In this document: in pieces, positions 8,791-46,133 of the stretch
Layout: every line of letters starts with the position of its first letter
Numbering within the stretch: position 1 is the stretch's first letter
DNA from: Acidimicrobiales bacterium
Lineage (GTDB): Bacteria > Actinomycetota > Acidimicrobiia > Acidimicrobiales > Bog-793
DNA: 46,133 bases
Assembly: GCA_050742375.1 (NCBI GenBank)
Contig: JBOGHY010000059.1
Span: 1 to 46,133 of the forward strand
Reading direction: 5' to 3'
Translations under genes and position numbers: made by a program
Notes under the pieces: generated by a model
Databases searched by the model: none
Told to the model about the DNA's origin: nothing
Seen by the model: only the letters and a program-made list of their open reading frames with translations

Positions 8791-8898
8791 TCGGGCTCGG
8801 TGAAGTCGGCGCTCACCTCGGCGTCGCCGGGGCGGTCGTCATCTTGGTCCTGGTAGGCGACCTAGTGATGACAGGAGGGGCGCTCGCAGGCTTCCTAG
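8791..8898. repeat. direct repeat copy 2, left half (remnant of the wecA 3' end), ending in the CTAG target duplication
   Basis: Matches 5148-5255 with 5 mismatches in 108 nt. CTAG at 8895-8898 abuts the IS1380 left inverted repeat. Confidence 0.9.
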
Positions 8899-25978: not shown

Positions 25979-26067
25979 TCGGCGCCTGAGCGAGTTGGGC
26001 CCACATAGCCAGCCGTGGGCTATCAAGCATGGCGTAGCTGCACTTCTGTGCCAGACGTGCGGTAGCG

Positions 26068-27015: not shown

Positions 27016-27040
27016 CCAGCTGTCATATCTCAGGCATCAG

Positions 27041-28345: not shown

Positions 28346-29267
28346 CAGCGGGTCTGCAGTCGAGGGCTCGCATCGGGCGACATCTTGTCAGCGTTTGGCT
28401 CTGGATAGAGGCGGTGGGATAAAGCCACTCGTGGTCTCGGGCGAGCAGGACCAGAGGACCAGCGCAAGTGACCACGCTGTCGCGTCGAAGATCGGGAGCG
28501 GGACTCATCGCCGTTGTCGCTGTTCGGCCAGGCACGTGTCCATCCCGGCGGTCTCCTCTTTGCCGGCATGCCACAGCTGTGACGTTGAGGCCGCAGTATT
28601 GAAGCTAACCATGGGACCGCTCAGGCGTCAATGGGGAATACTCGGGGATTGCGCGCGCTTGGCGGTCGGCTGCATGTCGCAGGTGGTGAGGCAAGTCGAT
28701 GCGAGCTGGCGCCGCCGCTGAATGACATTCGTGTAGTTCGGTGACCGACACCGAAGAGGCCTCCCCTTCTGGGAAGCGGCCACGATCGAGACCAGTCTTG
28801 GCAACGAGGACCCGGGCGGCGGCATTGACTCGAGCCCGGCCCGGCCCCTCCCGAGCAGCACTTTCGTCACCCTCTCTCGCCGAACGCCTCGGTGAGTAAG
28901 CCGGCGGCTGGGAGGCCATGGCACGCACGACCGCCGGGGCCTCGCACCCGAAACCGTCGATCACCATCTGTGGGGTCAGCCAATGTCACGAGCCCTACCC
29001 CGCACCTCTGATGTATGGAAGCCCCCTATGTTGGTGACGGTCTTTCCGGCACGCCAGGGTGGTTGCGTCCCGTTCGATCGGCACGCAGATCACGTTTATC
29101 CTCGCGACGACTCCGGGAGTCAGCTCAGCGACCCGCGATTGGAAGGCTGCACGATGGATCATCGCAGCGGCCCCTACCACGACTACCGCGCCCCGGCCAT
29201 CGCCGGAGGGACGTCACCCGCAGGGCGGTACTCAAGCCCGGCAGGAAGATTGCCGATAGAGAAGCAC

Positions 29268-30953
29268 ATGATCCGGAACCTGCCGAAGAGGTCCAAGCGT
29301 GTCTTCGAGACCGCGTCCGCGCTAGTACTCGTAGTTGGTGCTGCAGGCCTCCTAACTAATCAGGAGGGAACTGCTGCGACAGGACATCTGACTGTTGCCA
29401 GGCAAACTGCAATCGAGACCACCTCCTTATCTTATTCCGCCCGACCGGCCTCCAGCTCGCGAGAACTCGGACTCGTATCTCAGCTCCGCCTCATTTCGTT
29501 GGCGAGTACCAGGCCGAGCAGCTCTACGTATCAAGACGTCATTACCCACGTCCGCGCACAAGAGACTATCTACCAACCTCCGAAATCACTTCCGGCGAAC
29601 TGTTCGAGGGATGTCGCACCGGCACTCTATCGATGGCTCAGTTCTCTTCCGGATGGAACTGCCCAAAGACCTACGGTTGTCGTCTTTCGCTCCACGAGCT
29701 GCTACCAGGTTGACGAGACGCTTCCAATCTGGCAGCGGAGCTACATAGAACTTGATGGAAACGGCGCACACCTCGTGGCCACGACAAACGGCACAGGTGC
29801 GCCTTACGTGGGCATCGACTATGGTGAGAGACGCGGGAGGCACTTTCCCTACTACTTCGTCCAAAACCTGGTTGGCAGTACCGGCAGCGACAACCGCTCC
29901 GTTTTTTTGATTGATGACTCATCTCACATCGTCGTCTCCGGGTTTCGTGTTAAAGGCTCCAACAGTTGCAAGCTTGTTCCGTACTATAATTGCTACATGC
30001 CCTCGCTCGAAGGGCAGGCCGGCTTCGTGGTGGGCGGGAGTAGGGACATCACTATCACCGACAACGTGATCTCACACGTGTGGGGCGACTGTGCTCAAGT
30101 TGGAGATTACAACGCCGACGACCACGGCTGGACCGATGGCGTTACGTTCTCTCGAAACTCCTGCGATCATCTCGGGCGCCATGGCTGGTCATCCAACAGC
30201 GGCGAGAACTTCAGGTTCTCCGACAACACCTATTCGATGATTGCTTACGATGCGGTCGACCTGGAGGACGACAGCGGCGGGCCGACGATGCCCGTCGGTT
30301 GCACCACTGGCTGCTCGGGCGCAGGCTGGGTCAACGTCACGTCCAGCTACGAGCGCTTTGCCGACGTAGGCTTGGATGGCATCGCAGTCCAGGGTGGCGC
30401 GAACATGACCGGAGAAAGCATCAACTTCCGCCACGACACCTTCGGCGGGGGCACCCCGCAATTCTTGGCGTATACTAACGAGCCTAATCCGTACTTCGGT
30501 CCAATCTCGCTGACCAACTCGATCGCGACATCGTCGGCGATGAGCAACTACCGTGATGGTGTGGAACTGACAGGGGTGGTCAATGGCATATCGCGCTTCA
30601 CGGACAATGCCCTGCTCAACATGGCCTACGGCTGCACCACTACGTGCGAGTACCAGCAACCCTATGGGTTCGGGATCTGGTCTTCCCGCAACATAGTTAT
30701 CGAGAACAACAACGTGGAGGCGGCAGGCCACGTGGCCGAGATTGACTCGAGAACGGACTCTTTGACTGGGCGCAGTCCTAACCGTGCTTCTCCATCAATC
30801 AACGTGACCGTCTGTGGGAATCGTTACAGCCTCCCTTCAAGACCTGAAGAGCAGTCGCGGTGTCGAGTTGACACAACGAGACGTCATCGGTCAGTCCATC
30901 AATTGGCGAACGACACGTTGGTACATCTCCTAGTGTCCCGAGCCAGAGATTAG
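29268..30953 (+). CDS. secreted/anchored right-handed parallel beta-helix repeat protein; 3' end altered by the IS630 insertion
   Basis: ATG 29268 gives an N-terminal anchor/signal (MIRNLPKRSKRVFETASALVLVVGAAGLL). Repeated ...ITITDNVISH..., VTFSRNSCDH..., FRFSDNTYS..., IVIENNNVE segments are typical of pectate-lyase-like beta-helices. The reading frame runs 21 nt into the IS630 left end before stopping. Confidence 0.6.
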   Translation: MIRNLPKRSKRVFETASALVLVVGAAGLLTNQEGTAATGHLTVARQTAIETTSLSYSARPASSSRELGLVSQLRLISLASTRPSSSTYQDVITHVRAQETIYQPPKSLPANCSRDVAPALYRWLSSLPDGTAQRPTVVVFRSTSCYQVDETLPIWQRSYIELDGNGAHLVATTNGTGAPYVGIDYGERRGRHFPYYFVQNLVGSTGSDNRSVFLIDDSSHIVVSGFRVKGSNSCKLVPYYNCYMPSLEGQAGFVVGGSRDITITDNVISHVWGDCAQVGDYNADDHGWTDGVTFSRNSCDHLGRHGWSSNSGENFRFSDNTYSMIAYDAVDLEDDSGGPTMPVGCTTGCSGAGWVNVTSSYERFADVGLDGIAVQGGANMTGESINFRHDTFGGGTPQFLAYTNEPNPYFGPISLTNSIATSSAMSNYRDGVELTGVVNGISRFTDNALLNMAYGCTTTCEYQQPYGFGIWSSRNIVIENNNVEAAGHVAEIDSRTDSLTGRSPNRASPSINVTVCGNRYSLPSRPEEQSRCRVDTTRRHRSVHQLANDTLVHLLVSRARD

Positions 30954-32168
30954 GGGCATAAGTGTCATCAGGCCTCGGAAGCGCGCGCGGCCGCCGCCGC
31001 CGATTCCCGCTCGCAGTAGCGGGCAAGGCTGGCGAGAATCTGATCGGCGGTCTTCACCCACACGTAGGGCCGGGGGTTCTCGTTCCAGTTCGCGATCCAC
31101 TCGCGGATGTCCTTCTGGAGGGCCTTCACGTTCGTGTGGGCGCCGCGCTTGATCTTCTTCGTGGTGAGCTCGCCGAACCACCGCTCGACCATGTTGAGCC
31201 ACGACCCCGAGGTGGGCGTGAAGTGCAGGTGAAAGCGCGGGTGGCGCAGCAGCCAGCGACGGATCTCGGGGGTCTTGTGGGTGGCGTGGTTGTCCAAGAC
31301 GAGGTGCACCTCGAGGTCGGTCGGGACCTCGCCATCGATCTGGACGAGGAACTTCTTGAACTCGGCTGCTCGGTGATGCTTGCGAAGCGAGCCGATCACC
31401 TTGCCCGAGGTCATGTCGAGCGCGGCGAAGAGGCTGGTGGTGCCGTGGCGCACGTAATCGTTGTTTCTGCGCTCGGGGGTGGCGGGCATCATGGGCAGAA
31501 TCGGCTGGAAGCGGTTGAGCGCCTGGATCTGCGAGGACGCAGAGCACGACGGCTCGCTCGGGCGGGTCCATGTAGAGCCCGACCACGTCACGGACCTTCT
31601 CGATGAAGAGGGGGTCGGTCGACAGCTTGAAGCTCTCGGCTCGATGCGGCTGGAGCCCGAAGGCGTGCCAGATCCGCCGGATGGTGGTCTGGCTCATGCC
31701 GACCTCCCTCGCCATCGAGCGCGTCGACCAGTGGGTGGCGTCCTTCGGCTTCTCCTCGAGTGTCTTCACCACCACCGCTTCGACCTGGTCGTCGGTGATG
31801 GTGCGCGGCACGCCGGGCCTCGGGTCGTCGAAGAGGCCATCGAGTCGGCGCTCGACGAAGCGACGGCGCCACTTGCCGACCATGGCCTGGCTCACCGACA
31901 GGTGTGCGGCCACGTCCCGGTTGGTCCCACCCTTCGCGCAGCTGAGCACGATGCGTGCGCGCATCGCAATCGCCTGAGCGCTCTTGTGCCGGTTGCTCAG
32001 ACGCTCGAGGCTGAGACGCTCCTCGTCGCTCAGCACGAGCTCTGCCTTCGGCCGGCCCATGATTGCCATGTCGTCTCCCATCGTCGCAGGTACGACGTGG
32101 AAACCGCGCTAGCCACCCAGAAATTCCCAGATGGTCGACATTTCTTTCAAATCTCTGGCTCGGGACAT
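30933..32168 (-). mobile_element. IS630-family insertion sequence (1236 bp) flanked by a TA duplication
   Basis: The terminal inverted repeats GTGTCCCGAGCCAGAGATT (30933-30951) and AATCTCTGGCTCGGGACAT (32150-32168) match at 18/19 positions. TA is present at 30931-30932 and 32169-32170. Confidence 0.85.
30968..32081 (-). pseudogene. IS630-family transposase, split into two frames with loss of the first catalytic-Asp motif
   Basis: Frame 1 reads MGRPKAELVLSDEERLSLERL...MDPPERAVVLCV. Frame 2 reads SSQIQALNRFQPILPMMPATPERRNNDYVRHGTTSLFAALD...LVLDNHATHK...SGSWLNMVERWF. Where relatives have VDEKSQIQAL, the sequence reads GTC-C-TCGCAGATCCAG. Confidence 0.8.
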
Positions 32169-32797: not shown

Positions 32798-33404
32798 GTG
32801 CGCCACGAGGCGCCATGACACCGGGCGGTGATGAAAGGGCGCCGCCTCCGGATTGTCGCAGCAATCTGGTGAAGCTGGGGGCAGCCTGACCCCGGAGGCA
32901 CGGGAGCAGGTGGGAGCAGCCCCGACAACGCCGGGACGGTTCGGCACCGCCAGATGGGCCGGGTCCGGCAAGCGAGACGGGACGGTGTACGAATGCAGAA
33001 ACCAGCGGTGGAACCCCCTCAAGAAGTGCGCCGGCTCGAACCTGGTGGATCGGGGCCGGAGGGCAGTGCGCGCTCGCCGGGAAGCTGCGGCGGGCGACAT
33101 CAGGTCGGAATTGGGAAGTCCGACCTGGTGGTCACGGTGAATGTCTGCGGCGTAGCCGGGACGAGGCTGCAGGGGAAGAGTTGGGCACCAACCCCGTCGA
33201 CCGGTACATGGTGAACGTGGGAACCGTCGTCACGCACCCCACACCGACGCCCAGCCAGGGCGTCGGCGGGAAGGCATGCCGTCTGCTGATGGCGTGGCGA
33301 TGGGACGGAGGGTCCGTAGTAGTCCGAGGCCGGGAAAGCCGGTCACATGGCGAAGGGACCCAGCGAGTTCGCAGGAAGGTCGTTGGAATGCCAGGAGGTC
33401 GCCG

Positions 33405-34835
33405 GTGAACACCGACGCTTCGTGGCCCGACCTCTATGAGGCCGAGTCTCGGGTACTGGGGATCCAGACCAAGCTGCATCAATGGGCTGCCGACGACCCT
33501 CATCGTCGGTTCTGTGACCTCTTCAACCTCGTCGCCGATCCCGCTTTCCTTGTGGTCGCATGGGATCGGGTGCGGGGCAATCGGGGGGCACGGTCGGCTG
33601 GAGTCGATGGGGTGGAACCCCGCTCCATCGTCTTCGGCAGGGATTGGTTCCTCACCGAGCTGCGAGACGATCTCAAAGCCGGGCAGTTCCGACCCAGTCG
33701 GGTGCGTGAACGGATCATTCCCAAGCCCGGCTCGTCAAAGGGCCGTCGCTTGGGCATCCCCACCGCCCGGGACCGTACCGTGCAAGCATCCCTCAAGCTG
33801 GTGCTCGAACCGATATTCGAGGCGGACTTCAAGCCGGTCAGCTACGGCTTCCGCCCGAAGCGGCGAGCCCAGGACGCCATCGCCGAGATTCACCAGTTCA
33901 CCTCTCGTTCCTACGAGTGGGTGCTCGAGGGTGACATCAAGGCGTGCTTCGACGAAATCTCGCATGTCGGCCTTCAAGACCGCGTGCGAGAGAGGATCGG
34001 GGACAAGCGTGTCCTGGGCTTGGTGAAGGCGTTCCTCAGGTCCGGCATCCTCACTGAGGACGGGATCGAACGGGACACCATCACCGGCACCCCGCAAGGG
34101 GGCATCCTCTCGCCGTTGCTAGCCAACATTGCTCTCTCGGTCCTCGACGATCACTTCGCCGCGGCTTGGGAGGCGTGGGGCGACTTCAATGCCCGCAGCT
34201 ACCGGAGGCGCAAGGGAATGGCCACCTACCGCCTGGTGCGGTATGCCGATGATTTCGTCGTGTTGGTGGCCGGCACCCGAGCGCATGCCGAACAGCTGCG
34301 GGACGAGGTCGCCGCGGTGCTCCAACCGATGGGCCTTCGCCTTTCGGAGGAGAAGACGACGATTGTCCACATCGACGAAGGCTTTGACTTCCTCGGCTGG
34401 CGCATCCAGCGTCAACGCCGACGGGGGTCGGACAAGCGGTTCGTCTACACCTGGCCGTCGCATAAGGCGCTCGCCTCGGTGAAGGCCAAAGTGCGGGCGC
34501 TCACCCGAGGAGGCACGAATCAACCACTGTCGGTCCTGCTGCGCCGGCTGAACCCGGTGCTTCGGGGCTGGGCCAACTACTTCCGACACGGCGCCTCGTC
34601 GGCGACCTTTGACTACCTCAACGCCTTCAGTTGGCGGCGGGTGGTCATCTGGCTCCGTCACAAGCACCGCCGTGCCAATTGGGCGTGGCTCCGCCGTCGC
34701 TACCTTCCGGGGTGGCGGCCGACGGAAGGCGAGATCACCCTGTTCAACCCGTGTTCGATGGCGGTTACCCGCTATCGGTATCGGGGAGCGCAGATTCGCT
34801 CGCCGTGGCCCACAGCGGACGTGACGGTCGCATAG
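33405..34835 (+). CDS. group II intron reverse transcriptase/maturase (no recognisable HNH endonuclease domain)
   Basis: RT motifs are present: RIIPKPGSSKGRRLGIPTARDRTVQ, GFRPKRRAQDAI, TPQGGILSPLLANIAL and RYADDFVVLV. The maturase X region reads LNPVLRGWANYFRHG. GTG 33405 is preceded by AGGAGG. The ORF is open from 33276. Confidence 0.9.
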   Translation: MNTDASWPDLYEAESRVLGIQTKLHQWAADDPHRRFCDLFNLVADPAFLVVAWDRVRGNRGARSAGVDGVEPRSIVFGRDWFLTELRDDLKAGQFRPSRVRERIIPKPGSSKGRRLGIPTARDRTVQASLKLVLEPIFEADFKPVSYGFRPKRRAQDAIAEIHQFTSRSYEWVLEGDIKACFDEISHVGLQDRVRERIGDKRVLGLVKAFLRSGILTEDGIERDTITGTPQGGILSPLLANIALSVLDDHFAAAWEAWGDFNARSYRRRKGMATYRLVRYADDFVVLVAGTRAHAEQLRDEVAAVLQPMGLRLSEEKTTIVHIDEGFDFLGWRIQRQRRRGSDKRFVYTWPSHKALASVKAKVRALTRGGTNQPLSVLLRRLNPVLRGWANYFRHGASSATFDYLNAFSWRRVVIWLRHKHRRANWAWLRRRYLPGWRPTEGEITLFNPCSMAVTRYRYRGAQIRSPWPTADVTVA

Positions 34836-34857
34836 TCCAGCGACTTGAGCTCGTGGA

Positions 34858-34891
<34 letters not shown>

Positions 34892-34956
34892 GGAGGTGCG
34901 GGCCGGGGAAACGGACCGCTTGAGAGAGCGGCACTGCGCCCCGGCCCGATCCCTAC

Positions 34957-36069: not shown

Positions 36070-36981
36070 TCACAAGATCCAGAAGTAGGTCCACTTGACC
36101 GGGCCGAGGGGCTTGGAGATGTCCCAGCTCCACACCTGGTTCGGGGCCTCGGCGATGAGCTCGGGCTTCTTGCTCGCGGGGTGCGTGGCGTGGCGGCGCC
36201 CGTCGCCCACCTCGTCGTGGGCGCGCAGCACCCGGTACATGGTGGGCACCGACGCCACGTAGATCCCCTGGTCGAGAAGCTTGGCGTAGGCCGTCGCCGA
36301 CGAGTCGTCGCAGAACTCCTCCGAGTTGAGCGTGGCGTGCACCTCCTTGCGCTCCACCTCGGTGAGCGCCTGGGGCTGGGGAGCCCGCACCGACTCGCGC
36401 CGAGGCGGAGCCGCGCTCTGGCGGTGGCGGCGGTACCAGCCGGCCCGGGACACCCCAACGGCCTCGCAGGCGGTCCTGGTCGGCACCGACACGTCCTCGA
36501 GCCCGGCGACGGCTCCGTCAACGAGCTGGGTCACCTCGTCTCGCCCCTCTCCTCCGGCGCGCCGTCGGTGACGAGCTGCTCCAACAGCGCTGAGAGTTTT
36601 CCCTGGACCTCGATGATCTTGCGGGCCTTGTCGAGCTCGCCGGTCAGGCGCTTGTTGTCGCACCGGAGCTTGCCGATCTCCTTGTCTCGGGGGTCGGCGG
36701 CCGGAGGTCCCGCCGACTTGGGCGAGCTCGGCCATGCCGCCGCGGTCGCGCTGCTTGCGCCACTCGGACAGCAGCGACGAGTAAAGGCCCTCGCGGCGCA
36801 AGAGGGCGCCCTTCTCGGCCTTGTCCAGGCGGTCGTACTCCTCGAGGATCCTCGCTTTGTACGCGGCCGGGAACCGGCGCGTCGGGCGGGCGCGCTTGGG
36901 GACGACCTCGACCTCGGGGTCAGTGTGGTCCATCACGCGATGTTGGGCGCGCGACGGTGGAGTGGTGGATCGTGTTGGTCA
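36070..36981 (-). pseudogene. IS3-family element remnant (orfA plus the N-terminal part of orfB; frameshifted and 3'-truncated)
   Basis: The HTH region is [43 protein letters not shown]. The leucine-zipper region [38 protein letters not shown] lies in a different frame. The orfB start ...YRVLRAHDEVGDGRRHATHPASKKPELIAEAPNQVWSWDIS is cut off just after the first DDE Asp. The terminal TGACCAACACG... sequence is at 36981. Confidence 0.75.
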
Positions 36982-37017
36982 TCGTGGAACTTCCGGGTCT
37001 ACTGACGGTTTCGTGGG

Positions 37018-37761
37018 TCAAGCTGCCCAAGGTAGCGACGGTGCGATGCCAGATCTGGCGAGCATGATCATCGTGATGAAGCTTTCGGGATGACGAAATC
37101 CTCGGGCAGCCGATCGGACGCGACCGATGGCTGCGTTGTTCGACTCAGAGATGCCGGTCGTGAAGCCCCACTCGATGGTCGCCTCGATCGAGGCCCGGTA
37201 GTGGCGGATCGTCCGGGCGAGCTTGACGAAGGCTTGCAGGCGGGACCTGCTGGCGAAGTAGAGCCAGTCATCGAGGGCTTCCATGGCCTTGGCGGGGGGC
37301 ATCGACATGACGTCTCTCAGCTCCTCTTTCAGTTGCCAGGCCCGGAACGACCGCCTGTTCGCCTTCTCGAGGTCCCTGATGACGCCTTTCTGAGAAGGGC
37401 TCAGGTTCTCCCAGTTGCGCAACAGCAGCCATCTGAGCCCCTTCAGCTCCTTCGCCGTCTTGGTGCCGCCTCTTCGGCGGAGGTGGTTCCACTCCTCCCG
37501 TCTCACTTCGTCAAGGGCGTCTGTCGCCCAGGCGACGACGTGAAACGTGTCGAGGCAGACGACGACGTCGGGAGCACGCTCGGCAACGACGGCCCGTATC
37601 CACTCGGCCCCGTCGCAGCTCACGAACTCGAGCTCGGCGCAGCGAGTTTCGCCGAGGGCGTCAAAGAACTCCCCGACCGTCTCTTTGGAGCGTCCCTTCG
37701 CCGCCCAGATGACCTTTCCGCTCAGGTGGTCGCGGACGACGGTCAGGTAGCGATGGCCTTT
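37018..37761 (-). pseudogene. ISL3-family transposase, C-terminal part
   Basis: KGHRYLTVVRDHLSGKVIWAAKGRSKETVGEFFDALGETRCAELEFVSCDGAEWIRAVV...LDTFHVVAWATDALDEVRR...ISESNNAAIGRVRSAARGFRHPESFITMIML shows ISL3 DDE-domain motifs. It is preceded in frame by a stop at the insertion junction. Confidence 0.8.
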
Positions 37762-37842
37762 TCAGGGGTCGGTGGTGCGCATCATGTGCCTTGAGCAGGC
37801 GGGTCATGTGGCGCACAGGTGAGCGTGACCAGGTCAGGGCCG

Positions 37843-38382
37843 TCAGCGGTTGAGCCGGGCCATGAGCTCGCGGTTGATCTGTCGCGCGGCCTCGAGCTCT
37901 TCGGTGCGGCGGGCGAGCCCCTCCTGGACGTCGAAGAGCGCCTGCTCGAGCTCGGCGACGCGCCCGGTCGCCGCGAGCTCTGCTCGCAGCGATCCTTCGC
38001 CGACCTCCTTCGCCATGACCTCGTCGCCGAGCAGCTCGCCGAGGCGGCGCTTGAGGGCCGCCAGGTCCTGCTCCAGGCGGTGGTTGGTCGCCTTCGCGTT
38101 CTCGAGGTCCGCTCGCAAGGAAGCGGTCGTGACCCGGGCATCCCCCGCCGCCGACCTGGCTCGGTCCTGAGCAAGCTCGGCGCAGCGACGGTCGACTTCG
38201 GCGCGCAACTCGGGATGGTCGTAGAGGAACCGACGACTCACGCCTGCCATTCGGGCGACACGAGCGACTACGAGCGGCTCACCGACACGTGCCATGGAGT
38301 CGACGGCGGCGAGGACGCGTACCGCCTTGGCCTCCGAGTCGGCCCGGCGCTTTCGGACCAGGTTCTCGACACGATCAGCCAC
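37843..38382 (-). CDS. small third gene of the recombinase element (DUF6262-like / TnpC-position protein with a coiled-coil tail)
   Basis: GTG 38382 overlaps the upstream stop by 8 nt (GTGGCTGA). The 179-aa product reads ...AVRVLAAVDSMARVGEPLVVARVARMAGVSRRFLYDHPELRAEVDR... followed by a heptad-like tail. The family name is recalled from memory. The track ORF is open to 38748. Confidence 0.65.
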   Translation of the reverse strand: MADRVENLVRKRRADSEAKAVRVLAAVDSMARVGEPLVVARVARMAGVSRRFLYDHPELRAEVDRRCAELAQDRARSAAGDARVTTASLRADLENAKATNHRLEQDLAALKRRLGELLGDEVMAKEVGEGSLRAELAATGRVAELEQALFDVQEGLARRTEELEAARQINRELMARLNR

Positions 38383-40954
38383 CGGTCGCGTCCTTGTGGC
38401 CGCCGGCTCGTTCGATGGTCGGGAACAGCGTCGGGCGAGGTTGGCGCGCCAATCCACGGAACTCGACGGGGAACGTGGTCGCGAGTGCAGCACGCTCCTT
38501 GCGCACCGTCGCGATCGCGGCCTCGATGCGTTCGCGCTCGTCGGGATCACAGCCGGCCAGGACCTCACTGTTGGAACGGACGAGTCGGCGAACCGCCTCG
38601 ATCTCCTCTGGGCTCGGCGCGGCGTCGGCCCGGGCCCATTCAGTGAGCGCCTGGGTCGCCGCCGCCAGGCGCTCCCTGTCCGCGAGCAGCTGGGCGAGGT
38701 ATCCCTCGAGCTCGGGCTGGAACGAGGGATCCGTGCGGAAGTACTCACAGCCCAGGCAACGGTGGCGGAATGGACATGAATGTCCTTCGGCTCCGACGTT
38801 GGTGGGCTCGGTGCAGACTCCGAAGGGAACTGCGACCTGACCGACCTGCTCTCGCAGGGCCTCGGAGGAGCCGAGCACCGCGATCCCCGGCCGCACGCGA
38901 CCTGCGTGCGCGTCGAACTGCAAGGGTCCGAGCGCGTCCTGAGCGGTGCGCTTTCGGCGAGCAGTGACGCGGTAGTAGGTCAACGTGACTCGCACCGTGC
39001 CATGACCGAGAAGCTCCTTCAAGGTGTCGACCGGCGTGCCCGCGTCCGCGTGGCGCTGGGCGAAGCTGTGGCGAAACGCGTAGGGGAAGACGCGTTCTCG
39101 TGGAAAGGGAACCGGGATCCCGGATGCGTCGCGCTCGGGGCCGTCGAGGCGGTCGAGCGCGTCGACCCACCGGCGCATCACCCACGCCAGCCAGCTCGCC
39201 GAGACGGGCCGGGTGCCGTCGGGGTTCTTCAGTGCCCGCGGAAACAGCACGAGGCGCTCGGGTGGCATCTGGGGGAAGGCGGCCCGCACCCGGGCTTGTT
39301 GGGCGGAGATGATCCTCGCCTCCCGGTCGTTGATCGGCAGCCGGCAGCCGAGGGCTCCGACCTTGGGCATGTCGTGGACAAGCACCGGGCTCGCCCGCTG
39401 CTCGCCGTCGTCGCCGACATGGCTGTCGTAATCGAGGCAGGACAAGGAGAGCGTGCACAGCTTGCTCGTGCGCCGTCCGACACCAGCGGCGAGCTCGACA
39501 GCGGCACGAGCCATCGGGCCCGCCATCTCCTGGAGTACAGCCAACGACTCGTCGCTCAGCAGCTGGGACATGACGACGTCTGGGAGGGCACGGCCGAAGT
39601 CTTCGGGGTCCCGGCGGACCGGCGGCAGGCGGTCGCCTCGCCGCAGAGCCACCTCGTCGAGGAGACCGGCCATCGGGCCTCCCGGGCCGGTCAGTCCGAG
39701 TGACCGGGACTCTCGCAGAAATTTTGCGACGGCATCGAGGATCCGACGTCGCACGTAGGGCGTCAGCGCACCGGCCGCCTCCAGGTGACCCAGCCGGGCG
39801 CAGAAGGCCTCGATGTCTTTGCGACCGAGCGCGGCGGGGACCGCACCGGCGTCCTCGCGGCGAGCGAGATGTTCGGAAAGGGTCCCGAGCGCGTTCAACG
39901 CCGTCTGCACCGTCACCTTGCCCCTCGAGGACAACGCGTCGGCGGCCCAGGCTTTTGCCGACTCCTTCAGCCATCGCTGGGTGATCGCAGGCGACGAGAT
40001 CCTGCCGTTTTGGTGCAGGTGGCTGCCGCCGGCGAAGGAGAGCCGCCCGCGCTTGCCCCAGTGGCGCAGATCCCAGACGTCGCCTTCGCGCTCGCTGTTG
40101 GCATCGGAGGACGCGAGCGCGGCCTCGTCGGCGCAGCGTGCGAGGAACCGGCGCACCGCCGCAGTCAGCTCCGTCCCGTCCATGTGGGCGACGCTGGTCA
40201 CGCGCTGGCGCCGGAGGTGGTCGACCGCGGCGCGAAGGTCGGTGGGCATGACTCGGCGGCCGGCCGCAAGGGAGCCCTGGACGCCGAGGAGCACCTCGCA
40301 GATGACCTGGGCGGGCAGCCCGGCGAGCACGACGCGACCCTGGCGATCGCCCCGACATGGCAGCGCGTCGTGAAAGAACGCTTCGAGCTTCGGGCGCCCA
40401 GCCTTGCGCCACGCCTGATCGTGGGCCTCGCAGAGGCCGTGCACCTTCCTCGCCACCAGGCGACCGCAGGAGACGACCGCGCAGGTCCCGAGCGTCGGTC
40501 GAGGTGACGCCGGCTCGAAGGTCCTGTCGCCGTCGACGTAGGCGGCCACGCTCTGGTGGCGGGTGAGCCGGGTGCGATCGCACGACAGGCACAGCCCATT
40601 CGCGACGGCGGGTCGACAGGCGCCAGGGAGCCGGCACACCGCGCACAGCCGCTCACCGGGACGCCGTCCCGGGATCCCGGCCGGCAAGAACTCTGCGAGT
40701 GGACGTTCGGCGTCCTTCGCCCGGCGAGTCGCACATCCCCCGCACAGGCGGTTCTTGCACCAGGCCTCGCTGCCACAGCCGGCGACCGCGCAGACCTCGT
40801 AGCCGAGGAGGCGGTGCGCCGGGTCGGGGGTGAACACCTCCGTCGCCGGATCGAAGCCGAGCCCGACCATGGCGGCCATGTCGATCGCGGCGGCGAGCCC
40901 GGCCCGGTCGGCGAAGAGCGGGACCGCCAGAGGGGTAAGCCGGGCCGCTCTCAC
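38375..40954 (-). CDS. large tyrosine recombinase (phage-integrase family) with an N-terminal Cys-rich repeat region
   Basis: The catalytic region reads ...VFPYAFRHSFAQRHADAGTPVDTLKELLGHGTVRVTLTYYRV. The C-terminal region reads GHSCPFRHRCLGCEYFRTDPSF. GTG 40954 forms a GTGA overlap with the upstream integrase stop. 859 aa. Confidence 0.85.
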   Translation of the reverse strand: MRAARLTPLAVPLFADRAGLAAAIDMAAMVGLGFDPATEVFTPDPAHRLLGYEVCAVAGCGSEAWCKNRLCGGCATRRAKDAERPLAEFLPAGIPGRRPGERLCAVCRLPGACRPAVANGLCLSCDRTRLTRHQSVAAYVDGDRTFEPASPRPTLGTCAVVSCGRLVARKVHGLCEAHDQAWRKAGRPKLEAFFHDALPCRGDRQGRVVLAGLPAQVICEVLLGVQGSLAAGRRVMPTDLRAAVDHLRRQRVTSVAHMDGTELTAAVRRFLARCADEAALASSDANSEREGDVWDLRHWGKRGRLSFAGGSHLHQNGRISSPAITQRWLKESAKAWAADALSSRGKVTVQTALNALGTLSEHLARREDAGAVPAALGRKDIEAFCARLGHLEAAGALTPYVRRRILDAVAKFLRESRSLGLTGPGGPMAGLLDEVALRRGDRLPPVRRDPEDFGRALPDVVMSQLLSDESLAVLQEMAGPMARAAVELAAGVGRRTSKLCTLSLSCLDYDSHVGDDGEQRASPVLVHDMPKVGALGCRLPINDREARIISAQQARVRAAFPQMPPERLVLFPRALKNPDGTRPVSASWLAWVMRRWVDALDRLDGPERDASGIPVPFPRERVFPYAFRHSFAQRHADAGTPVDTLKELLGHGTVRVTLTYYRVTARRKRTAQDALGPLQFDAHAGRVRPGIAVLGSSEALREQVGQVAVPFGVCTEPTNVGAEGHSCPFRHRCLGCEYFRTDPSFQPELEGYLAQLLADRERLAAATQALTEWARADAAPSPEEIEAVRRLVRSNSEVLAGCDPDERERIEAAIATVRKERAALATTFPVEFRGLARQPRPTLFPTIERAGGHKDATGG

Positions 40955-42093
40955 GACCGCTCCTCGTTCGCCCACAGGTTGACCGGACCGAGGCGCTCCA
41001 CTGCGGCCCGTTGGGCATCGACGTCGGGGTGGAGGTAGGTCTCGGTCGAGCGGATCGAGGCATGGCCGAGCAGTTCCTTCACGACGTCGAGGCCGGCTCC
41101 CCTCGACAAAAGCTCGGTGGCCGTCGCGTGACGGAACAGATGTGGGGTGACCGCCCGCTCGAGCCCTGCTCGCTTGGAGAGCGCGGCGAGCCACTTGCGG
41201 ACGGTGTCGGCGGACATGGGGCGACCGAGGGGTTCGTGGGAGAGGTTGACCAACACGAAGTCACAGTCCGCGGCCGCCGAGCAGGCACCTCGCTCGCGGA
41301 GGTAGCGGTCATAACAGGAGAGCACCTCGGAGCGCACCGGCACTGAGCGCTCCCCGGACTTCGCCCTGGCACCGTTTTGGTTGTCCCGGTCGACGACGTG
41401 AAGGTGCGGTCCGGGCACCGGGCAGCCGAGGTTCGCAGCACTCGGCACGAGATGGAGGTCGGAGCGCCTGAGCCCGAGGGCCTCGCCGACCCGAAGCCCG
41501 CAGAACCACAACAAGACAAGGAGGAAGCGGTCGCGCCAAGAATGAGCCGCCACGAGCAGCGCCTCGACCTCGTCATGGCGCACCGGCACGGGGCGTCGGG
41601 TGCGACGCGCGCGCTGGAGGTGGCGAGGACGCGCGAGGTAGCGAAGTCCCGATCTCTCCGGGCGCAGCTCTGCGGGCAGGTGGCGGTCGTCACCGACCTC
41701 GTAGAGGGCCGCGAGCACCGACGCGTCGAGGCTGCCGTCTGCGACGGCGTGCTTGTAGAGCTCTCGGACGACGGCGAGGAGATGGTTGATCCGCCCCGGG
41801 CTGCGCACGTTCCCTCGACCGGCACCATTGCGGGTGATGGGGCTCGTCTTGAGCATCGCGATGAACATCCCGAGCGACTTCGCACCGGCGAGGAGGTCAC
41901 GCTCGGTCCGCGCGCACCACGACAGGTAGCAGGCGAGGTCACCGGCGTAGGAACGAGTCGTGCCCTCTGCGCGCCCGGCCCCGAGGCGGAGGTGGCGCAG
42001 GTAGGCGTCGGCGACCGGAACCGGCCGCCACTCCTCGTCGACGACCGTCCAGTAGGCGAGCGTGTCGGTCAGGGTGATGCGAAGCGCCTGCAT
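40951..42093 (-). CDS. tyrosine recombinase/integrase (XerC/D-like size)
   Basis: 380 aa. The N-terminal SAM-like core-binding region reads YLRHLRLGAGRAEGTTRSYAGDLACYLSWC. Catalytic motifs are GLRVGEALGLRRSDL and TPHLFRHATATELLSRGAGLDVVKELLGHASIRSTETYLH. Confidence 0.9.
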   Translation of the reverse strand: MQALRITLTDTLAYWTVVDEEWRPVPVADAYLRHLRLGAGRAEGTTRSYAGDLACYLSWCARTERDLLAGAKSLGMFIAMLKTSPITRNGAGRGNVRSPGRINHLLAVVRELYKHAVADGSLDASVLAALYEVGDDRHLPAELRPERSGLRYLARPRHLQRARRTRRPVPVRHDEVEALLVAAHSWRDRFLLVLLWFCGLRVGEALGLRRSDLHLVPSAANLGCPVPGPHLHVVDRDNQNGARAKSGERSVPVRSEVLSCYDRYLRERGACSAAADCDFVLVNLSHEPLGRPMSADTVRKWLAALSKRAGLERAVTPHLFRHATATELLSRGAGLDVVKELLGHASIRSTETYLHPDVDAQRAAVERLGPVNLWANEERS

Positions 42094-42211
42094 CCTGGCC
42101 TCTGGTGGCTCTCACTTTGCACGTGGCGCACGGTATCCAGAGGGTGTGACTCCGACCCTCGTTTCCGACCCTGCGATGCGCACGACGCGCGGGATCCCCC
42201 ACTCCAGAAAA

Positions 42212-42727
42212 ATGGCCCTTTCTCGACTTCACTTCGTCGATCGAGATGGCGACGAGGCCAGCGAGCAGATCGACCCGCCCGAGCGCCTCGGTGGCGACAC
42301 GTACGCACATGTTGTCGACCGCCCGCCAGCTGAGCCCGTAGCGCCTGGCGACCGCCGCCTTGTTGGAGCAGATGGCGTCGTAGACGACGAGGTCCTCGAA
42401 GTCACGGGTGAAAGAGCTGTCATGACGGGCAAATGCCACTCCGGCGACGGTCGGGCCGTGGACCGGGCAGGTGACGCGGGGCGCCTCGGCGACAAGCTCG
42501 CAGGTGGCGTGCCCGACGTCGATGTGGCGCCAGCGCCTTTCCCCCCCGCCGCGATCGAAGAAAGGCGAGACGGCTCCGCAGCGGCCACAGCGCCCCCTGT
42601 CACGCGACCTCGGGCGCACTCTCACCGACAGATGGGGACGGGGCGAGCTCGCCTCCAGATCGAACCCGCAGATCACGACCGCCGAACAGAGCCCGAGCAC
42701 CGTCCTGAGTACGCTTTTCACGCGCAC
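42212..42727 (-). pseudogene. ISL3-family transposase, N-terminal part
   Basis: The zinc-ribbon-like RCGRCGAVSPFFDRGGGERRWRHIDVG...VTCPVHG, the HTH region KAAVARRYGLSWRAVDNMCVRV and the sequence ...AISIDEVKSRKGH are followed by junction-derived sequence. Confidence 0.8.
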
Positions 42728-43381
42728 GCCTTCCTCCTTCCTCGATTTCCAGCTCTATCAGCCAGAAACCGTAGGCGGGAGAAGGCGTGTTGCCGCGTCA
42801 GACCGGCTCAGCGACCCACGAAAGCGACACAAGACCCGAACTTCCCTCCCCGCCTTCTCAGGTCAATGTTTCGGCAGGTCGATCTGCCTCAGGCATTGTT
42901 GACACAGAGGGAACAGTGGCATTCGAAGGGCGAAGCGACCGGGGTGAAGACGCACGACTTTGTCGACAAAGAGTTCGGACGAGCTGATCGCCGTCGCGAC
43001 GACCTCGCCGGGGTTGCGGATCCATGCCGAACTCGACGAAGCTGCTAGGGCACCGGCGTGAAGGTCTCCGACAAAGTGCTTGCCGCCATCTCGCTACGCC
43101 TTGCACGACTTCCACGGCGACTGGAACTACACTATCAGCCCGCGGACTGCGCATTCAAACCAGCGGTGGCGAGGCCCCCGACCTCAAGCGCGGGTATTCC
43201 CGGGTATCTGCTGACAGATAGCCGCTCATTCCAGAAGAACCTCTTTCCCCTATCCCGATCACGAGCGGGTTGACTGATCGGGGCTAAGGTTGGGCTAAGG
43301 TGGCTTGACCGGTCGAGAGGTGCCAGGGACAGCCAGCGTGTCGGCAAGCCCGCTCGCGACAACGACCGGCATGAAGGGGCA

Positions 43382-44521
43382 GTGGTGACGAGTAAGGTGG
43401 CATTGGAAGTACGCGTGGAGGCCACGCCGCTTACGTTTCTCACGTGGCATCTCATTGCAGGCCTGTCACTGTTGCATGCCACCGACGAGGTAAAGGTCAT
43501 ATTCAAACCTCCTAGTCCTAAGAATCGCTCGCATTTGTCAACTCCCCGAATCCGGTCGCCTTGTGTGAAGATGCAAGTGCGTGATAGGTCTGCTGACACG
43601 TTGTTATCAGTTTGTCTCGATCTAGGTGACGGTCCAGATATCAGTCCGGCTTGTCTAGATTCTTCAGTCGACGTGATCTTTAAGAGATCCCTCGTCGGCA
43701 GGTCATCGAGGCCATCGGGAAAGCGAGTGCTTCCCTATGGACTCGTGTTCGAGTGTCGAAGTGGTCATGAGGGCTTATTGCTTCAGCATTCATTACGGTC
43801 TATACAAGGTCTCTGTCCACCAGCCGACATTCAGGATATAAAGCTCATTGGATGGACCTTGAAAACCACCGGTCGCCTGGTGGCAGGTCGATGGTGGAAC
43901 ACGAAAGAGTTGCCTCGACGTCTTGCTCAATACGAGCACCACTCTGACGCACCCGCTGAAGAAGCGATCTTCTTTCAGACCCGTGTCTGGGATCCAAGTC
44001 TCGGCTCCGACCCGGTTGATCGACAGCGTGTCAATGGTGTCCGAGTCCAAACGATACGGACGCTCAAGCGTACCTTTGGCAAGCGCTTTGTTGGGGGACT
44101 TGTGCCCTCTCGCTACGCGATTGCTACATATCCCGATTGTATAACATCATGGGGCAGTGACAACAACCAATATACCGCGCAGCTGCGCCGCTGTGCTATT
44201 GCGGTCTCGACCACCGGCCTGTTTGGCTCAGTTCCATTTAAAATTCCCGAGTATTTGGCCGCCGCACGAGCTATAGTCACGGAGCCACTGAGAGTAATAT
44301 TGCCTAGACAACTCCGGGCGGAAGGAGAAATCTTAACCTTTGCCACCGCGAGCGAATGTGTCGAACAGTGCGATCGCCTGCTAGCGATGCCCAGGCTTCG
44401 GAATGCACTCCGTAGGAACGCTGCTGAGTACTACGTACACAACGTTCGCCCCGATTCTCTACTCAGAGGCCGGTTCCGGGACCTGCGAGCTGAGGGTCCA
44501 CCGCAGATTAGCCGAGGTTAG
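43382..44521 (+). CDS. hypothetical protein with a C-terminal region resembling CgeB/Glyco_trans_1_2-type glycosyltransferases
   Basis: 379-aa ORF in a lower-GC patch. The C-terminus AVSTTGLFGSVPFKIPEYLAAARAIVTEPL...FATASECVEQCDRLLAMPRLRNALRRNAAEYY resembles that domain as recalled. The start is uncertain, and the gene is isolated between mobile elements. Confidence 0.4.
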   Translation: MVTSKVALEVRVEATPLTFLTWHLIAGLSLLHATDEVKVIFKPPSPKNRSHLSTPRIRSPCVKMQVRDRSADTLLSVCLDLGDGPDISPACLDSSVDVIFKRSLVGRSSRPSGKRVLPYGLVFECRSGHEGLLLQHSLRSIQGLCPPADIQDIKLIGWTLKTTGRLVAGRWWNTKELPRRLAQYEHHSDAPAEEAIFFQTRVWDPSLGSDPVDRQRVNGVRVQTIRTLKRTFGKRFVGGLVPSRYAIATYPDCITSWGSDNNQYTAQLRRCAIAVSTTGLFGSVPFKIPEYLAAARAIVTEPLRVILPRQLRAEGEILTFATASECVEQCDRLLAMPRLRNALRRNAAEYYVHNVRPDSLLRGRFRDLRAEGPPQISRG

Positions 44522-44675
44522 CCGCGATCGGTCAAGCTACTGATTGTGGGAATGTCAAGAGCCCGGAGTGCTGGCTCTTCCGGTTTCAGTCCCGATGGCC
44601 TGGCGGCCACCCACGATGAATGAAATGCTGGTGCTGGCTGTCGAGCAAAGTCGCCGAGCCCCGATTGCAGTCTGA

Positions 44676-46133
44676 GGTGCCGTCCCATCCGCGGTGTAAA
44701 TAGACGACGGGCGTAGGTTCCTTCCAAAGCTTCCAACCCAAGAAGGAGACCCACACCCGTGTCCACCCGAGTATCACCCATCCAGCGCATCCGCGCCGAC
44801 ATCGACGAGCTTTTCGCCTCCGACCGGGACCTCGGCGACGTCCTCGAGGACGTCGCCCGCCTCGGCGTCCGCCTGTTGATGCAGACGGCCCTCGAGGCCG
44901 AGGTCACCGAGTTCTTCGGGCGGGAGCGCTACGCCCGGGGCAAGCGTGATCGAAAAGGGAGCCGCAACGGCTACTGCCCGACGACCATAAAGACGACTGC
45001 CGGCCCGGTCACACTCGATCGCCCGAAGCTGCGAGGCACCGACGGCAAGTTCGCCTCCCGCCTGCTAGGCATCGGCGTCTGCCGGACGAACGCCTTGGAG
45101 TCGCTCGTCATCGCCGGCTTCATCCGAGGACTGTCGGTCCGCGACGTCGAGGCGAGCCTGGCCGATGCCCTCGGCGCCGAGGCGACGCTCTCGAAGTCGA
45201 CGGTGAGCCGCATCTGCGAGGCGATCAAGGACGAGTTCGAGGTCTGGTCGAAGCGCGACCTCTCGGACCTGCGGCTCGACTACCTGTTCTTGGACGGAAG
45301 CCACTTCAAGTTCCACGAGGGGGCGGCCTCCGAGCCGGTGCTGGCGGCCTGGGGAATCACGAGCGACGGCGAGCCCGTCCTCGTCGGCCTGGCGCCCGGG
45401 AGCACCGAGTCGCACGACGCCTGGGCCGACTTCTTGCGAGAGCTCGTCCTCCGCGGCCTCACCCCGCCCCTCCTCGTCGTCTCCGACGGGGCAGCCGGGT
45501 TGATCGGGGCGGTCGAGTTCGTCTTCGGCCGCTCGCTTCGCCAAAGATGCCTCATCCACCGCTGCCGCAACATCTTGGCCAAGGTGCCGGCGAGCGCCCA
45601 GGCCGAGGTGAAGGCCGCCTTCTGGAAGCTGTTCGACGACGTCACGTCCGAGCCGGGCCAGGGCGCCGTCGAGGAGGTGCGCCGGAGGATCGCGGCGTTC
45701 GCCAAGCACTACGGCACCACCTACCCGGCCGCTGTCAAGTGCCTCCTTGCCGACGTCGAGTCCCTCACCGTCTACCTCCGCTTCCCGAGAGAGCACTGGA
45801 AGCGGATCCGCCACTCCAACTTCATCGAGCGCACCTTCGGCGAGACCCGCCGCCGGGTGAAGGTCATCGGCCGGCTGCCCGGGGAGCGGAGCTGCCTCAG
45901 CCTCGTGTGGGCTGTTCTCGACCGAGGGTCGCGGGGATGGCGAGGCGTGCAGCACAACCCGGCCACCACCCGACTGCTGGCAGACCTGCGTCACCAGCTG
46001 CTCGACCCGCCCGTGTCTATCACCGCCAAGAAGGATGAGGAGAACGCCGTCACAAGGACTGATACAGCAGTCGCGTAAAGTCAGACAAGGAGCCGCCGCT
46101 CGCCGTCTTTTACACCGTCAGCGGGACGCCACC
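44676..46133 (+). mobile_element. IS256-family insertion sequence (1458 bp), complete, ending at the window edge
   Basis: The left inverted repeat is GGTGCCGTCCCATCCGCGGTGTAAATAGACG... (44676 onward). The reverse complement of the last ~45 nt is GGTGGCGTCCCGCTGACGGTGTAAAAGACG.... There is a single Mutator-type transposase ORF. Confidence 0.85.
44759..46078 (+). CDS. IS256-family (Mutator-type) transposase
   Basis: 439 aa. Family motifs present are EAEVTEFFGRERYARG, RNGYCPTTIKTTAGPVTLDRPKLRG, LDYLFLDGSHFKFH, LLVVSDGAAGLIGAVEFVFGRSLRQRCLIHRCRNILAKVP and SNFIERTFGETRRRVKV. It has a GTG start with AAGGAG upstream. Confidence 0.9.
   Translation: MSTRVSPIQRIRADIDELFASDRDLGDVLEDVARLGVRLLMQTALEAEVTEFFGRERYARGKRDRKGSRNGYCPTTIKTTAGPVTLDRPKLRGTDGKFASRLLGIGVCRTNALESLVIAGFIRGLSVRDVEASLADALGAEATLSKSTVSRICEAIKDEFEVWSKRDLSDLRLDYLFLDGSHFKFHEGAASEPVLAAWGITSDGEPVLVGLAPGSTESHDAWADFLRELVLRGLTPPLLVVSDGAAGLIGAVEFVFGRSLRQRCLIHRCRNILAKVPASAQAEVKAAFWKLFDDVTSEPGQGAVEEVRRRIAAFAKHYGTTYPAAVKCLLADVESLTVYLRFPREHWKRIRHSNFIERTFGETRRRVKVIGRLPGERSCLSLVWAVLDRGSRGWRGVQHNPATTRLLADLRHQLLDPPVSITAKKDEENAVTRTDTAVA

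Follow-up and report, generated by a model that had tools for sequence, protein, structure and literature searches.

In this study, we examined a 46,133-nt contig of an Acidimicrobiales bacterium (lineage Bog-793; assembly GCA_050742375.1, contig JBOGHY010000059.1, positions 1 to 46,133; this whole stretch is called the window below) and found that a 4,453-bp insert (37759-42211, minus strand, 70.2% GC) splits the transposase gene of an ISL3-family insertion sequence (IS). We read the insert, with a probability of roughly 0.85, as a cargo-free, site-specific transposon of the Tn554 family, belonging to an actinobacterial branch with a long TnpB. Its three products resemble TnpA, TnpB and TnpC of Tn558 and are encoded in the same order, and its termini are conserved in about 75 related loci, one of which (L022) carries an element 93.4% identical over the full length. 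In these loci the clade homes to Gly-His codons in the recombinase genes of other mobile elements, a habit that is probably real. The element itself adds a further member to a class that was catalogued in 2012 and is known in silico only; what is new, as far as our searches reach, is the first definition of ends and of a crossover site for this class, together with the targeting of recombinase genes.

Interruption of the Host ISL3 Gene

The transposase reading frame lies on the minus strand and is split at the codons of a Lys-Gly-His (KGH) motif. Its N-terminal part (42212-42727, ending ...IDEVKSRKGH) carries a zinc ribbon and a helix-turn-helix (Zn_ribbon_ISL3 and HTH_Tnp_ISL3; PF14690, PF13542) and covers positions 2-138 of the profile NF033550; the C-terminal part (37018-37752, RYLTVV... 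to the stop), which joins the first in frame, carries the DDE_Tnp_ISL3 domain (PF01610, E value 3.6e-59) and covers profile positions 136-370. Domains and profile spans agree with the preliminary description of this DNA, made from the letters alone, which had placed the break between IDEVKSRKGH (42212) and KGHRYLTVV, the point at 37761 from which the C-terminal part can be read. The host IS is otherwise complete (36995-42837; 1,384 bp after removal of the insert). It is bounded by terminal inverted repeats of 25-26 nt at 36995-37019 (transposase C-terminal side) and 42813-42837 (N-terminal side), the 26-nt arms being 85% complementary when the second is taken as 42813-42838, and by an 8-bp target-site duplication, GAACTTCC, read from the sequence at 36987-36994 and again at 42838-42845. 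Zinc ribbon, helix-turn-helix, DDE_Tnp_ISL3 domain, inverted repeats, 8-bp duplication and length (typically about 1.2-1.5 kb) are all those of the ISL3 family. When the two halves were joined and one copy of the junction repeat was dropped, the resulting open reading frame (ORF) of 416 aa was covered in full (100%) by matches to thousands of uninterrupted ISL3 transposases, the best at 81% identity, and the reconstructed IS aligned end to end (1-1382, 79.8% identity) with an intact ISL3 on another contig, L102, gapless at the insertion point, where L102 reads ...AAGAAAGGCCACAAATAC.... Given this gapless alignment and the full-length joined ORF, the 4,453-bp insert is a discrete insertion in the ISL3 gene; an intact ISL3 had been proposed as the check on this very point, and the relative on L102 provides a clean empty site. 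The motif hit lies just downstream of the first catalytic Asp, and the ISL3 is now inactivated.

Ends and Junctions of the Element

For comparison we drew on loci encoding relatives of the element's 859-aa protein, 21 from genomes and 80 from metagenomes; their sources are metagenome-assembled genomes (MAGs) of Actinomycetes and Acidimicrobiales and soil, peat and permafrost metagenomes (handles such as L022 refer to the loci compared); about 75 of them have conserved ends, and these fix the limits given above. Directly outside each end of the window element lies the hexamer GGCCAT (coding strand; ATGGCC on the plus strand). At the left, tnpA-side end (42212-42217) it is formed by the Gly-His codons of the ISL3 KGH motif, and at the right, tnpC-side end (37753-37758) it recurs unchanged. 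The element's own ends form an imperfect 13-14-bp inverted repeat, TTTTCTGGAGTGG and the reverse complement of CCGACCCCTGAAAA, occupying 42198-42211 on the left (coding strand TTTTCTGGAGTGGG) and 37759-37772 on the right (coding strand ...CCGACCCCTGAAAA). The preliminary description had seen no terminal inverted repeats; they are in fact a family-wide feature, since the left end TTTTCWGGRGTC... and the right end ...GACYCCWGAAAA of the family together make an imperfect inverted repeat of about 13 bp, the right-end consensus ...cgACcCCAGAAAA is the reverse complement of the left-end consensus TTTTCaGGgGtc, and the terminal repeat consensus is TTTTCWGGRGT / ACYCCWGAAAA. Further inward, a subterminal GTGCGCCAC motif stands near either end on the minus strand: at 42123-42131, inside the conserved block TGTCACACCCTCTGGATACCGTGCGCCACGTGC (alignment of 37 distinct left ends), and at 37808-37816 (alignment of 61 distinct right ends), where it corresponds to one half of the palindrome GTGGCGCAC-N4-GTGCGCCAC of the family consensus. 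Both are putative protein-binding sites.

The junctions had also been credited with an 11-bp core. Both 11-mers, ATGGCCTTTTC (37753-37763) and ATGGCCCTTTC (42212-42222), are present in the sequence, and the suggested survey of other insertions for ATGGCC(C/T)TTTC did yield related junctions; what repeats across the roughly 75 loci is the hexamer only, not the 11-mer. The 11-mers are completed at one junction by TTTTC, which belongs to the element's terminus, and at the other by Arg-Lys codons of the ISL3 gene; the likeness of these two 5-nt stretches is a coincidence confined to the window copy. Each end in the related loci is likewise flanked directly by a hexamer, and the hexamers of the two sides usually agree. 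Most loci show GGCCAC; the window has GGCCAT, and other loci have GGCTTC, GGGCAG, CACCAC, GGACAC, GGGCAC or AAGACG. The two sides match exactly in the window and in about 24 loci; in nine others they differ, and only at codon wobble positions 3 and 6, a pattern that would fit the carry-over of a donor hexamer between synonymous sites, a process published for Tn554-related and strand-biased circularizing elements, and would equally fit chimeric metagenome contigs. Two pairs of loci (L030/L031 and L043/L052) have the left flank in common and different right flanks. The distance between the conserved ends is mostly 4.43-4.53 kb, with about 4.3 kb in L063 and L075 and 4.87 kb in L017/L077. At the right junction of L005 (around ...CCCCAGAAAAGGCCACTTTTCGCCACGCC), the hexamer and the rest of the target gene are separated by 5 extra nt, TTTTC. 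The left end of the element starts with this very pentamer, which looks like a fragment of a circle joint or the trace of an offset crossover.

Encoded Proteins and Kinship with Tn554

As first described, the element holds three co-directional ORFs of 380, 859 and 179 aa, with start/stop overlaps of GTGA and GTGGCTGA. Its non-coding remainder is a 118-bp leader and an 84-bp trailer, which leaves no room for further genes within 4,453 bp and bears out the absence of cargo. The first gene (40951-42093, minus strand) encodes a tyrosine recombinase (PF00589, E 6e-29) with the motifs GLRVGE (199), HLFRH (318), LLGH (341) and TYLH (352), so that Arg, His-x-x-Arg, LGH and Tyr are all in place. The second (38375-40954, minus strand) encodes the 859-aa protein, a large tyrosine recombinase in which the PF00589 match is confined to residues 620-665 of the C-terminal catalytic part. 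In an alignment with 35 homologues (37-94% identity), R494/R495, R628-H629, H651 and Y660 are invariant, as are three N-terminal Cys clusters (C55/60/71/74, C104/107/122/125 and C158/163/175/H178) and a Cys4 cluster after the catalytic Tyr (C714/727/733/736). About 350 residues of its AlphaFold model (mean predicted confidence, pLDDT, 77) match Tn1549 Int, XerA, XerH, IntI, lambda Int and Cre, and the protein is thus predicted to have the full core-binding and catalytic fold of a recombinase. The third gene (37843-38382, minus strand) encodes an N-terminal DUF6262 domain (PF19776, E 1.2e-12) and a coiled coil. The profile check proposed at the outset thus returned PF00589 in both recombinases and DUF6262 in the third protein, and scans against Pfam and NCBIfam revealed no DDE, HUH or serine recombinase in the three products; an NCBIfam match to the gamma-mobile-trio recombinase GmtY was weak (E 8e-11) and far under its cut-off.

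As a reference for the Tn554 family we used Tn558 on Enterococcus hirae plasmid pF104_1 (L104), which comprises tnpA (361 aa), tnpB (637 aa), tnpC (121 aa, annotated as DUF6262), orf138 and fexA and sits inside a radC/JAB gene. In BLASTP comparisons the 380-aa protein is 26% identical to Tn558 TnpA over 355 aa (E 1e-31), the 859-aa protein 25% identical to TnpB over 166 aa (E 5e-8), with the catalytic end and a CPxxxxCxxC motif behind the catalytic Tyr common to both, and the 179-aa protein 24% identical to TnpC over 103 aa (E 4e-7), both being DUF6262 proteins. The initial view of a cargo-free, three-gene element of Tn554 type in the ISL3 KGH motif is upheld by this homology of all three proteins in the same order. 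Order and content, tnpA, large tnpB and tnpC (DUF6262), are those of the Firmicute members Tn554, Tn558, Tn6188 and Tn6674, the TnpC of Tn6188 being tabulated as a 'DUF6262 family protein' (PMC11947258). The family likewise has a 6-bp junction, and Tn554 too has imperfect terminal inverted repeats (PMC10214605). With Tn558 in particular the window element has in common a site- and orientation-specific insertion inside a conserved coding motif. The differences are nonetheless substantial. Protein identities are just 24-26%; the window TnpB-like protein has about 200 extra N-terminal residues, with the three invariant Cys clusters, compared with Tn558 TnpB, and its TnpC-like partner is 179 rather than 121 aa long. 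Whereas the Firmicute members carry resistance genes, the window element is cargo-free and has a high-GC actinobacterial host; and whereas the Tn554 target is radC, that of the window clade is the recombinase genes of other mobile elements. We treat the insertion target as a property of individual members and not of the whole family. In L104, Tn558 splits the radC/JAB gene directly after the catalytic-motif codons HNHPSGD (2150-2260 and 8860-8960), and insertion at the coding sequence of a catalytic motif may be a general habit of the whole Tn554 family. On another plasmid, Bacillus cereus pJ62_1 (L103, 1893-5387 and 6199-9807), 410-aa and 626-aa recombinases and a 131-aa DUF6262 protein are encoded, with a second recombinase gene and a second DUF6262 gene adjoining; these may be two adjacent or nested Tn554-like elements.

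The preliminary description considered such elements essentially uncharacterised in high-GC actinobacteria, which is not so: Van Houdt et al. 2012 (PMC3414803) had already defined, in silico, actinobacterial transposons related to Tn554. That class combines an abnormally long recombinase (>600 aa), whose long N-terminal extension has no known function, with a neighbouring recombinase of about 350 aa and a TnpC homologue, all co-directional (families Famint27/33/53/62 plus the TnpC-like protein), and was reported from plasmids as well as chromosomes, in Mycobacterium, Streptomyces, Rhodococcus and Nakamurella among others (PMC3414803). By sequence, the window element fits this definition, with a long recombinase whose catalytic motif is C-terminal, a partner recombinase and a TnpC-like gene. 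No ends, attachment (att) sites or targets were given for the class, only the speculation that several similar attB sites might exist (PMC3414803), and a 2023 survey reports Tn554-related elements only from Staphylococcus and Enterococcus, with the transposition route unresolved (PMC10214605). The long TnpB family is large: a profile search returned 826 cluster representatives at E <= 1e-30. Against plasmids, tblastn with the TnpB-like protein returned 142 records, nearly all actinobacterial (Streptomyces, Rhodococcus, Mycobacterium and Arthrobacter among them), all at <=38% identity, which marks the distance between the window element and its closest plasmid relatives in that class; megablast of the whole element against plasmids gave no match. 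Metagenome loci in which TnpB identity is as low as about 35% (L092, for example) still belong to the clade with recognisable termini.

Target Genes of Related Elements

For each related locus, the flanks were translated in the frame of the hexamer, the empty-site ORF was rebuilt and its domains were scanned. The most frequent targets, in 51 loci, are tyrosine-recombinase genes, entered at the LGH motif 9-10 residues before the catalytic Tyr. Most of these have the sequence ...VIALWLGH / ExxxTTxIYLHADxxxKERA...PGRYRPPDxLLAFLxxL, and where the flanks are long enough (L036, L013) the target is the third of three overlapping recombinase genes (417, 308 and 336 aa), a layout that, read from the gene arrangement, is recombinase-in-trio (RIT) architecture. 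Phage-type integrases also occur among the tyrosine-recombinase targets (L005, L030/31, L043/52 and others). In 18 loci the target is an ISL3 transposase gene, at the same codon as in the window, within (V/I)DE(V/I)S(W/Y)(R/K)K(G/H)H / xYLTLV. Two loci (L017, L077) have the element in a DDE transposase gene of IS5/IS1182 type, at TVDTEARHGH / K; a sub-lineage of four (L011, L021, L041, L050) has it in a Mu/rve-type transposase gene, with the hexamer A(A/G)GACG; and one or two loci (L019, L020) have it in the family's own tnpB, at the LGH-equivalent codons. In this last case (L019, 1040-1688, and L020) the gene hit is another, 41%-identical tnpB-type gene, with flanks DH/RSVQTTMGYYRV...CPIRFQCAGCGFYRPDPSY, a case of nesting within the family. 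Among the roughly 75 classifiable sites there is no insertion in intergenic DNA or in a gene that does not belong to a mobile element, and all classifiable insertions are co-directional with the target gene and in a single reading frame.

These insertions arose repeatedly. The window element and that of L022 are 93.4% identical over 4,453 bp, while their host ISL3 transposases, hit at the same codon, are 36% identical; the two are therefore independent insertions and not one inherited event, and co-inheritance of the element with its ISL3 is ruled out by the disparity between 93% and 36%. When the last 1 kb of the elements was used for a neighbour-joining tree, the members of the window clade were all in ISL3 genes, a second, large clade occupied trio recombinase genes, and ISL3 and recombinase targets were mixed in one clade; the target class thus has phylogenetic signal, yet it has switched repeatedly. 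One element was found in two MAGs (L002, L003): in L003 its left flank is an ISL3 N-terminal part (GGCCAC) and its right flank, after GGCTTC, is unrelated, and in L002 its left flank is an inverted ISL3 C-terminal part (GAAGCC, the reverse complement of GGCTTC), an arrangement that suggests an inversion between oppositely oriented copies, or a misassembly. Several element contigs have flanks of exactly 126-127 nt (L001 126/126, L004 127/127, L023 and others), equal to k-1 in an assembly with k=127; a de Bruijn graph yields such flanks where filled and empty copies of one target coexist in a sample, and they are indirect evidence of site polymorphism.

We found no published description of the targeting of recombinase coding motifs by any tyrosine-recombinase transposon, and the literature that we searched yielded no described target specificity of actinobacterial Tn554-related elements and no interrupted ritC genes. 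Beyond the homing itself, it is plausible, at slightly better than even odds, that the long-TnpB clade is a specialised parasite of mobile elements, homing in one orientation to GGNCAY Gly-His codons near catalytic motifs and inactivating its carriers while riding them. The habit has a conceptual counterpart in Tn5053/Tn402, the 'res-site hunters', which also prefer the recombination machinery of other mobile elements; these, in contrast, are DDE transposons (TniABQ) whose targets are resolvase-bound resolution sites and not coding motifs, and tyrosine recombination has no part in them. The finding matters in two respects. The element now has an anatomy that can be put to the test, a 6-bp crossover hexamer flanked by inverted arms of about 13 bp, with GTGCGCCAC motifs in subterminal position. 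Its ecology is unexpected, with elements that reside almost exclusively within recombinase genes belonging to other mobile elements, where they occupy conserved Gly-His codons. Should this be confirmed, the element would offer a clear example of parasitism in layers among the mobile elements of bacteria, and it would act as a natural inactivator of both insertion sequences and recombinase trios. It would also be a compact three-protein system whose target choice has seemingly switched several times, hence a candidate for the study, and perhaps the reprogramming, of target recognition by tyrosine recombinases.

Mobility and Alternative Explanations

The anatomy described above lends itself to a simple model of movement. 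The TnpA-like and TnpB-like recombinases would recombine the two junctions across the 6-bp hexamer, assisted by the DUF6262 TnpC-like protein, which, by analogy with what has been published for Tn554, may be an accessory or directionality factor. Excision would release a circle and restore the ISL3 gene. The circle joint would consist of right repeat, hexamer and left repeat (ACCCCWGAAAA-GGCCAY-TTTTCWGGGGT), reading ...CCGACCCCTGAAAA-GGCCAT-TTTTCTGGAGTGG... for the window copy, and the restored ISL3 site would read ...GTCGAGAAAGGGCCATCGCTACC..., ...AAGTCGAGAAAGGGCCATCGCTACCTG.... Inverted arms around a spacer are the layout of tyrosine-recombinase core sites such as dif, lox and FRT, and by this analogy the circle joint would be a core site with a 6-bp spacer. 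The circle would then re-integrate, in a single orientation, at a GGNCAY-type hexamer in a recognised context, which for the window clade would be Gly-His codons in conserved motifs of other mobile elements' recombinase genes. Candidate readers of that context are the N-terminal Cys clusters of TnpB, the subterminal GTGCGCCAC motifs, or both; if this is true, recognition would be modular, with a constant 6-bp crossover and a changeable context reader, possibly the zinc-cluster N-terminus of TnpB. We infer in this way the mobility of the element, its circular intermediate, the roles of its proteins and the present activity of the window copy.

Several observations weigh against our interpretation of the insert as a mobile, target-specific Tn554-family transposon. 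Only in its C-terminal 166 aa does the 859-aa protein resemble Tn558 TnpB, and both the radC target and the resistance cargo of Tn554 are absent. Neither an excision product nor a circle junction nor a same-strain empty site was seen; the circle-type joint (right end, 4-9 nt, left end) is absent from all fetched loci; and look-ups of the exact TnpA and TnpC proteins returned only the window junctions, in GCA_974105215.1 and in Logan SRR27067711, with no second site. The comparative loci are mostly short metagenome contigs whose left and right flanks may stem from different copies, and comparison of ISL3 with recombinase-gene targets gave no convincing DNA determinant common to both beyond the hexamer. 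Finally, the termini were not found in a 38%-identical relative on a Streptomyces plasmid (L108). The rules for ends and targets may hold only for the window clade, and given L108 we claim them only for the clade with recognisable termini. A scan for solo element ends within the window found none.

The alternative that fares best, though it is unlikely, is survivorship: the element would read the hexamer only, and insertions in host genes would be purged while those in dispensable, multicopy mobile elements persist and spread. All targets are indeed dispensable genes of mobile elements, and the lack of common DNA beyond the hexamer between ISL3 and recombinase-gene targets is what such a process would leave. 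However, GGNCAY occurs 269 times in the 46-kb window (5.8/kb), an abundance at which the hexamer alone cannot explain the target pattern, with 0 of about 75 classifiable sites intergenic or in a gene foreign to mobile elements. All sites, moreover, share one reading frame and orientation. In ISL3 targets the codon position is fixed while the hexamer varies (GGCCAC, GGCTTC, GGGCAG, CACCAC, CATCAT, CGGCAC), from which we argue that the flanks are read too, and near-identical elements occupy the same codon of ISL3 genes only 36% identical.

Less probable again is that the insert is an immobile relic, or a domesticated or fixed insertion, with its ORFs kept by chance or for some other function. 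The exact proteins are known from a single insertion site, and the missing circle and same-strain empty site would be expected of a relic. Yet the three ORFs are intact and translationally coupled, and the catalytic residues, terminal repeats and both hexamers are intact as well; a 93%-identical copy resides in a different ISL3, and the contigs of many relatives are about 4.4-4.7 kb long, which is what multicopy repeats would give. Transposition into a recombinase gene also accounts better for the data than a reversible genetic switch, in which excision would restore the ISL3 or recombinase gene and the element would regulate its host mobile element. The insertion at a catalytic motif is in frame, and removal of the element with one hexamer gives a full-length ORF, both as a switch would need; regulated excision, on the other hand, is without evidence, and the five unrelated recombinase classes hit are a better fit to parasitism than to co-adapted regulation, which makes the switch improbable.

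That the insert belongs instead to another multi-recombinase class, the RITs, the strand-biased circularizing elements (SEs) or GInt, is next to impossible: adjacent recombinase genes, a 6-bp junction and the weak GmtY match recall these classes, but the third protein is DUF6262/TnpC-like and not a recombinase, a fourth gene and a Tfp/GinC-like protein are absent, and the best pairwise homology is to TnpA, TnpB and TnpC of Tn558. Membership in all three was rejected on gene content, there being three genes and no recombinase domain in the third product. The resemblances are real nevertheless. SEs and GInt likewise pair a tyrosine recombinase of normal size with a large one, encode a small TnpC/Srap-like protein, insert target-specifically and bring a 6-bp footprint from the donor flank, and one SE was seen to insert into insJ of an IS3; Tn554-related elements and SEs have been described together as combining a normal with a large recombinase and as sharing target specificity and a 6-bp footprint (PMC10214605). 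As described, SEs and GInt differ in having four core genes, including the non-catalytic Tfp/GinC, in carrying cargo and in their occurrence in Gamma- and Betaproteobacteria. RITs are similarly compact and cargo-free, with overlapping recombinase genes between inverted repeats, but they encode three tyrosine recombinases (ritA, ritB, ritC) and no DUF6262 protein. RIT-like trios are prey and not kin of the element, and the third gene of the trio is the most frequent target in our data set.

Genomic Surroundings

The nest of element and ISL3 lies in an IS-rich stretch with low-GC glycosyltransferase genes. An ORF at 36070-36936 abuts the ISL3 end; its N-terminus presumably resembles OrfA of the IS3 family, and it has no Pfam match at E <= 1e-4. 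About 2 kb from the nest on the other side, an ORF at 44759-46078 encodes an IS256/Mutator-family transposase (PF00872, E 5e-72). Farther away, an ORF at 30930-32081 (minus strand) has the stacked HTH_32/HTH_28/HTH_23 domains of a typical transposase N-terminus, and a group II intron is represented by an ORF at 33276-34835 (plus strand) with RVT_1 and GIIM maturase domains, followed at 34856-34956 by a match to the Rfam family Intron_gpII (53 bits; gathering score 40). The GC content falls to 0.55-0.63 at 26000-31000 and 43000-45000, against about 0.68 elsewhere, and these dips coincide with a GT2 gene (26068-27015) and a Glyco_trans_1_2 gene (43382-44521); the low-GC glycosyltransferase region may be a horizontally acquired polysaccharide cluster that was invaded by IS elements.

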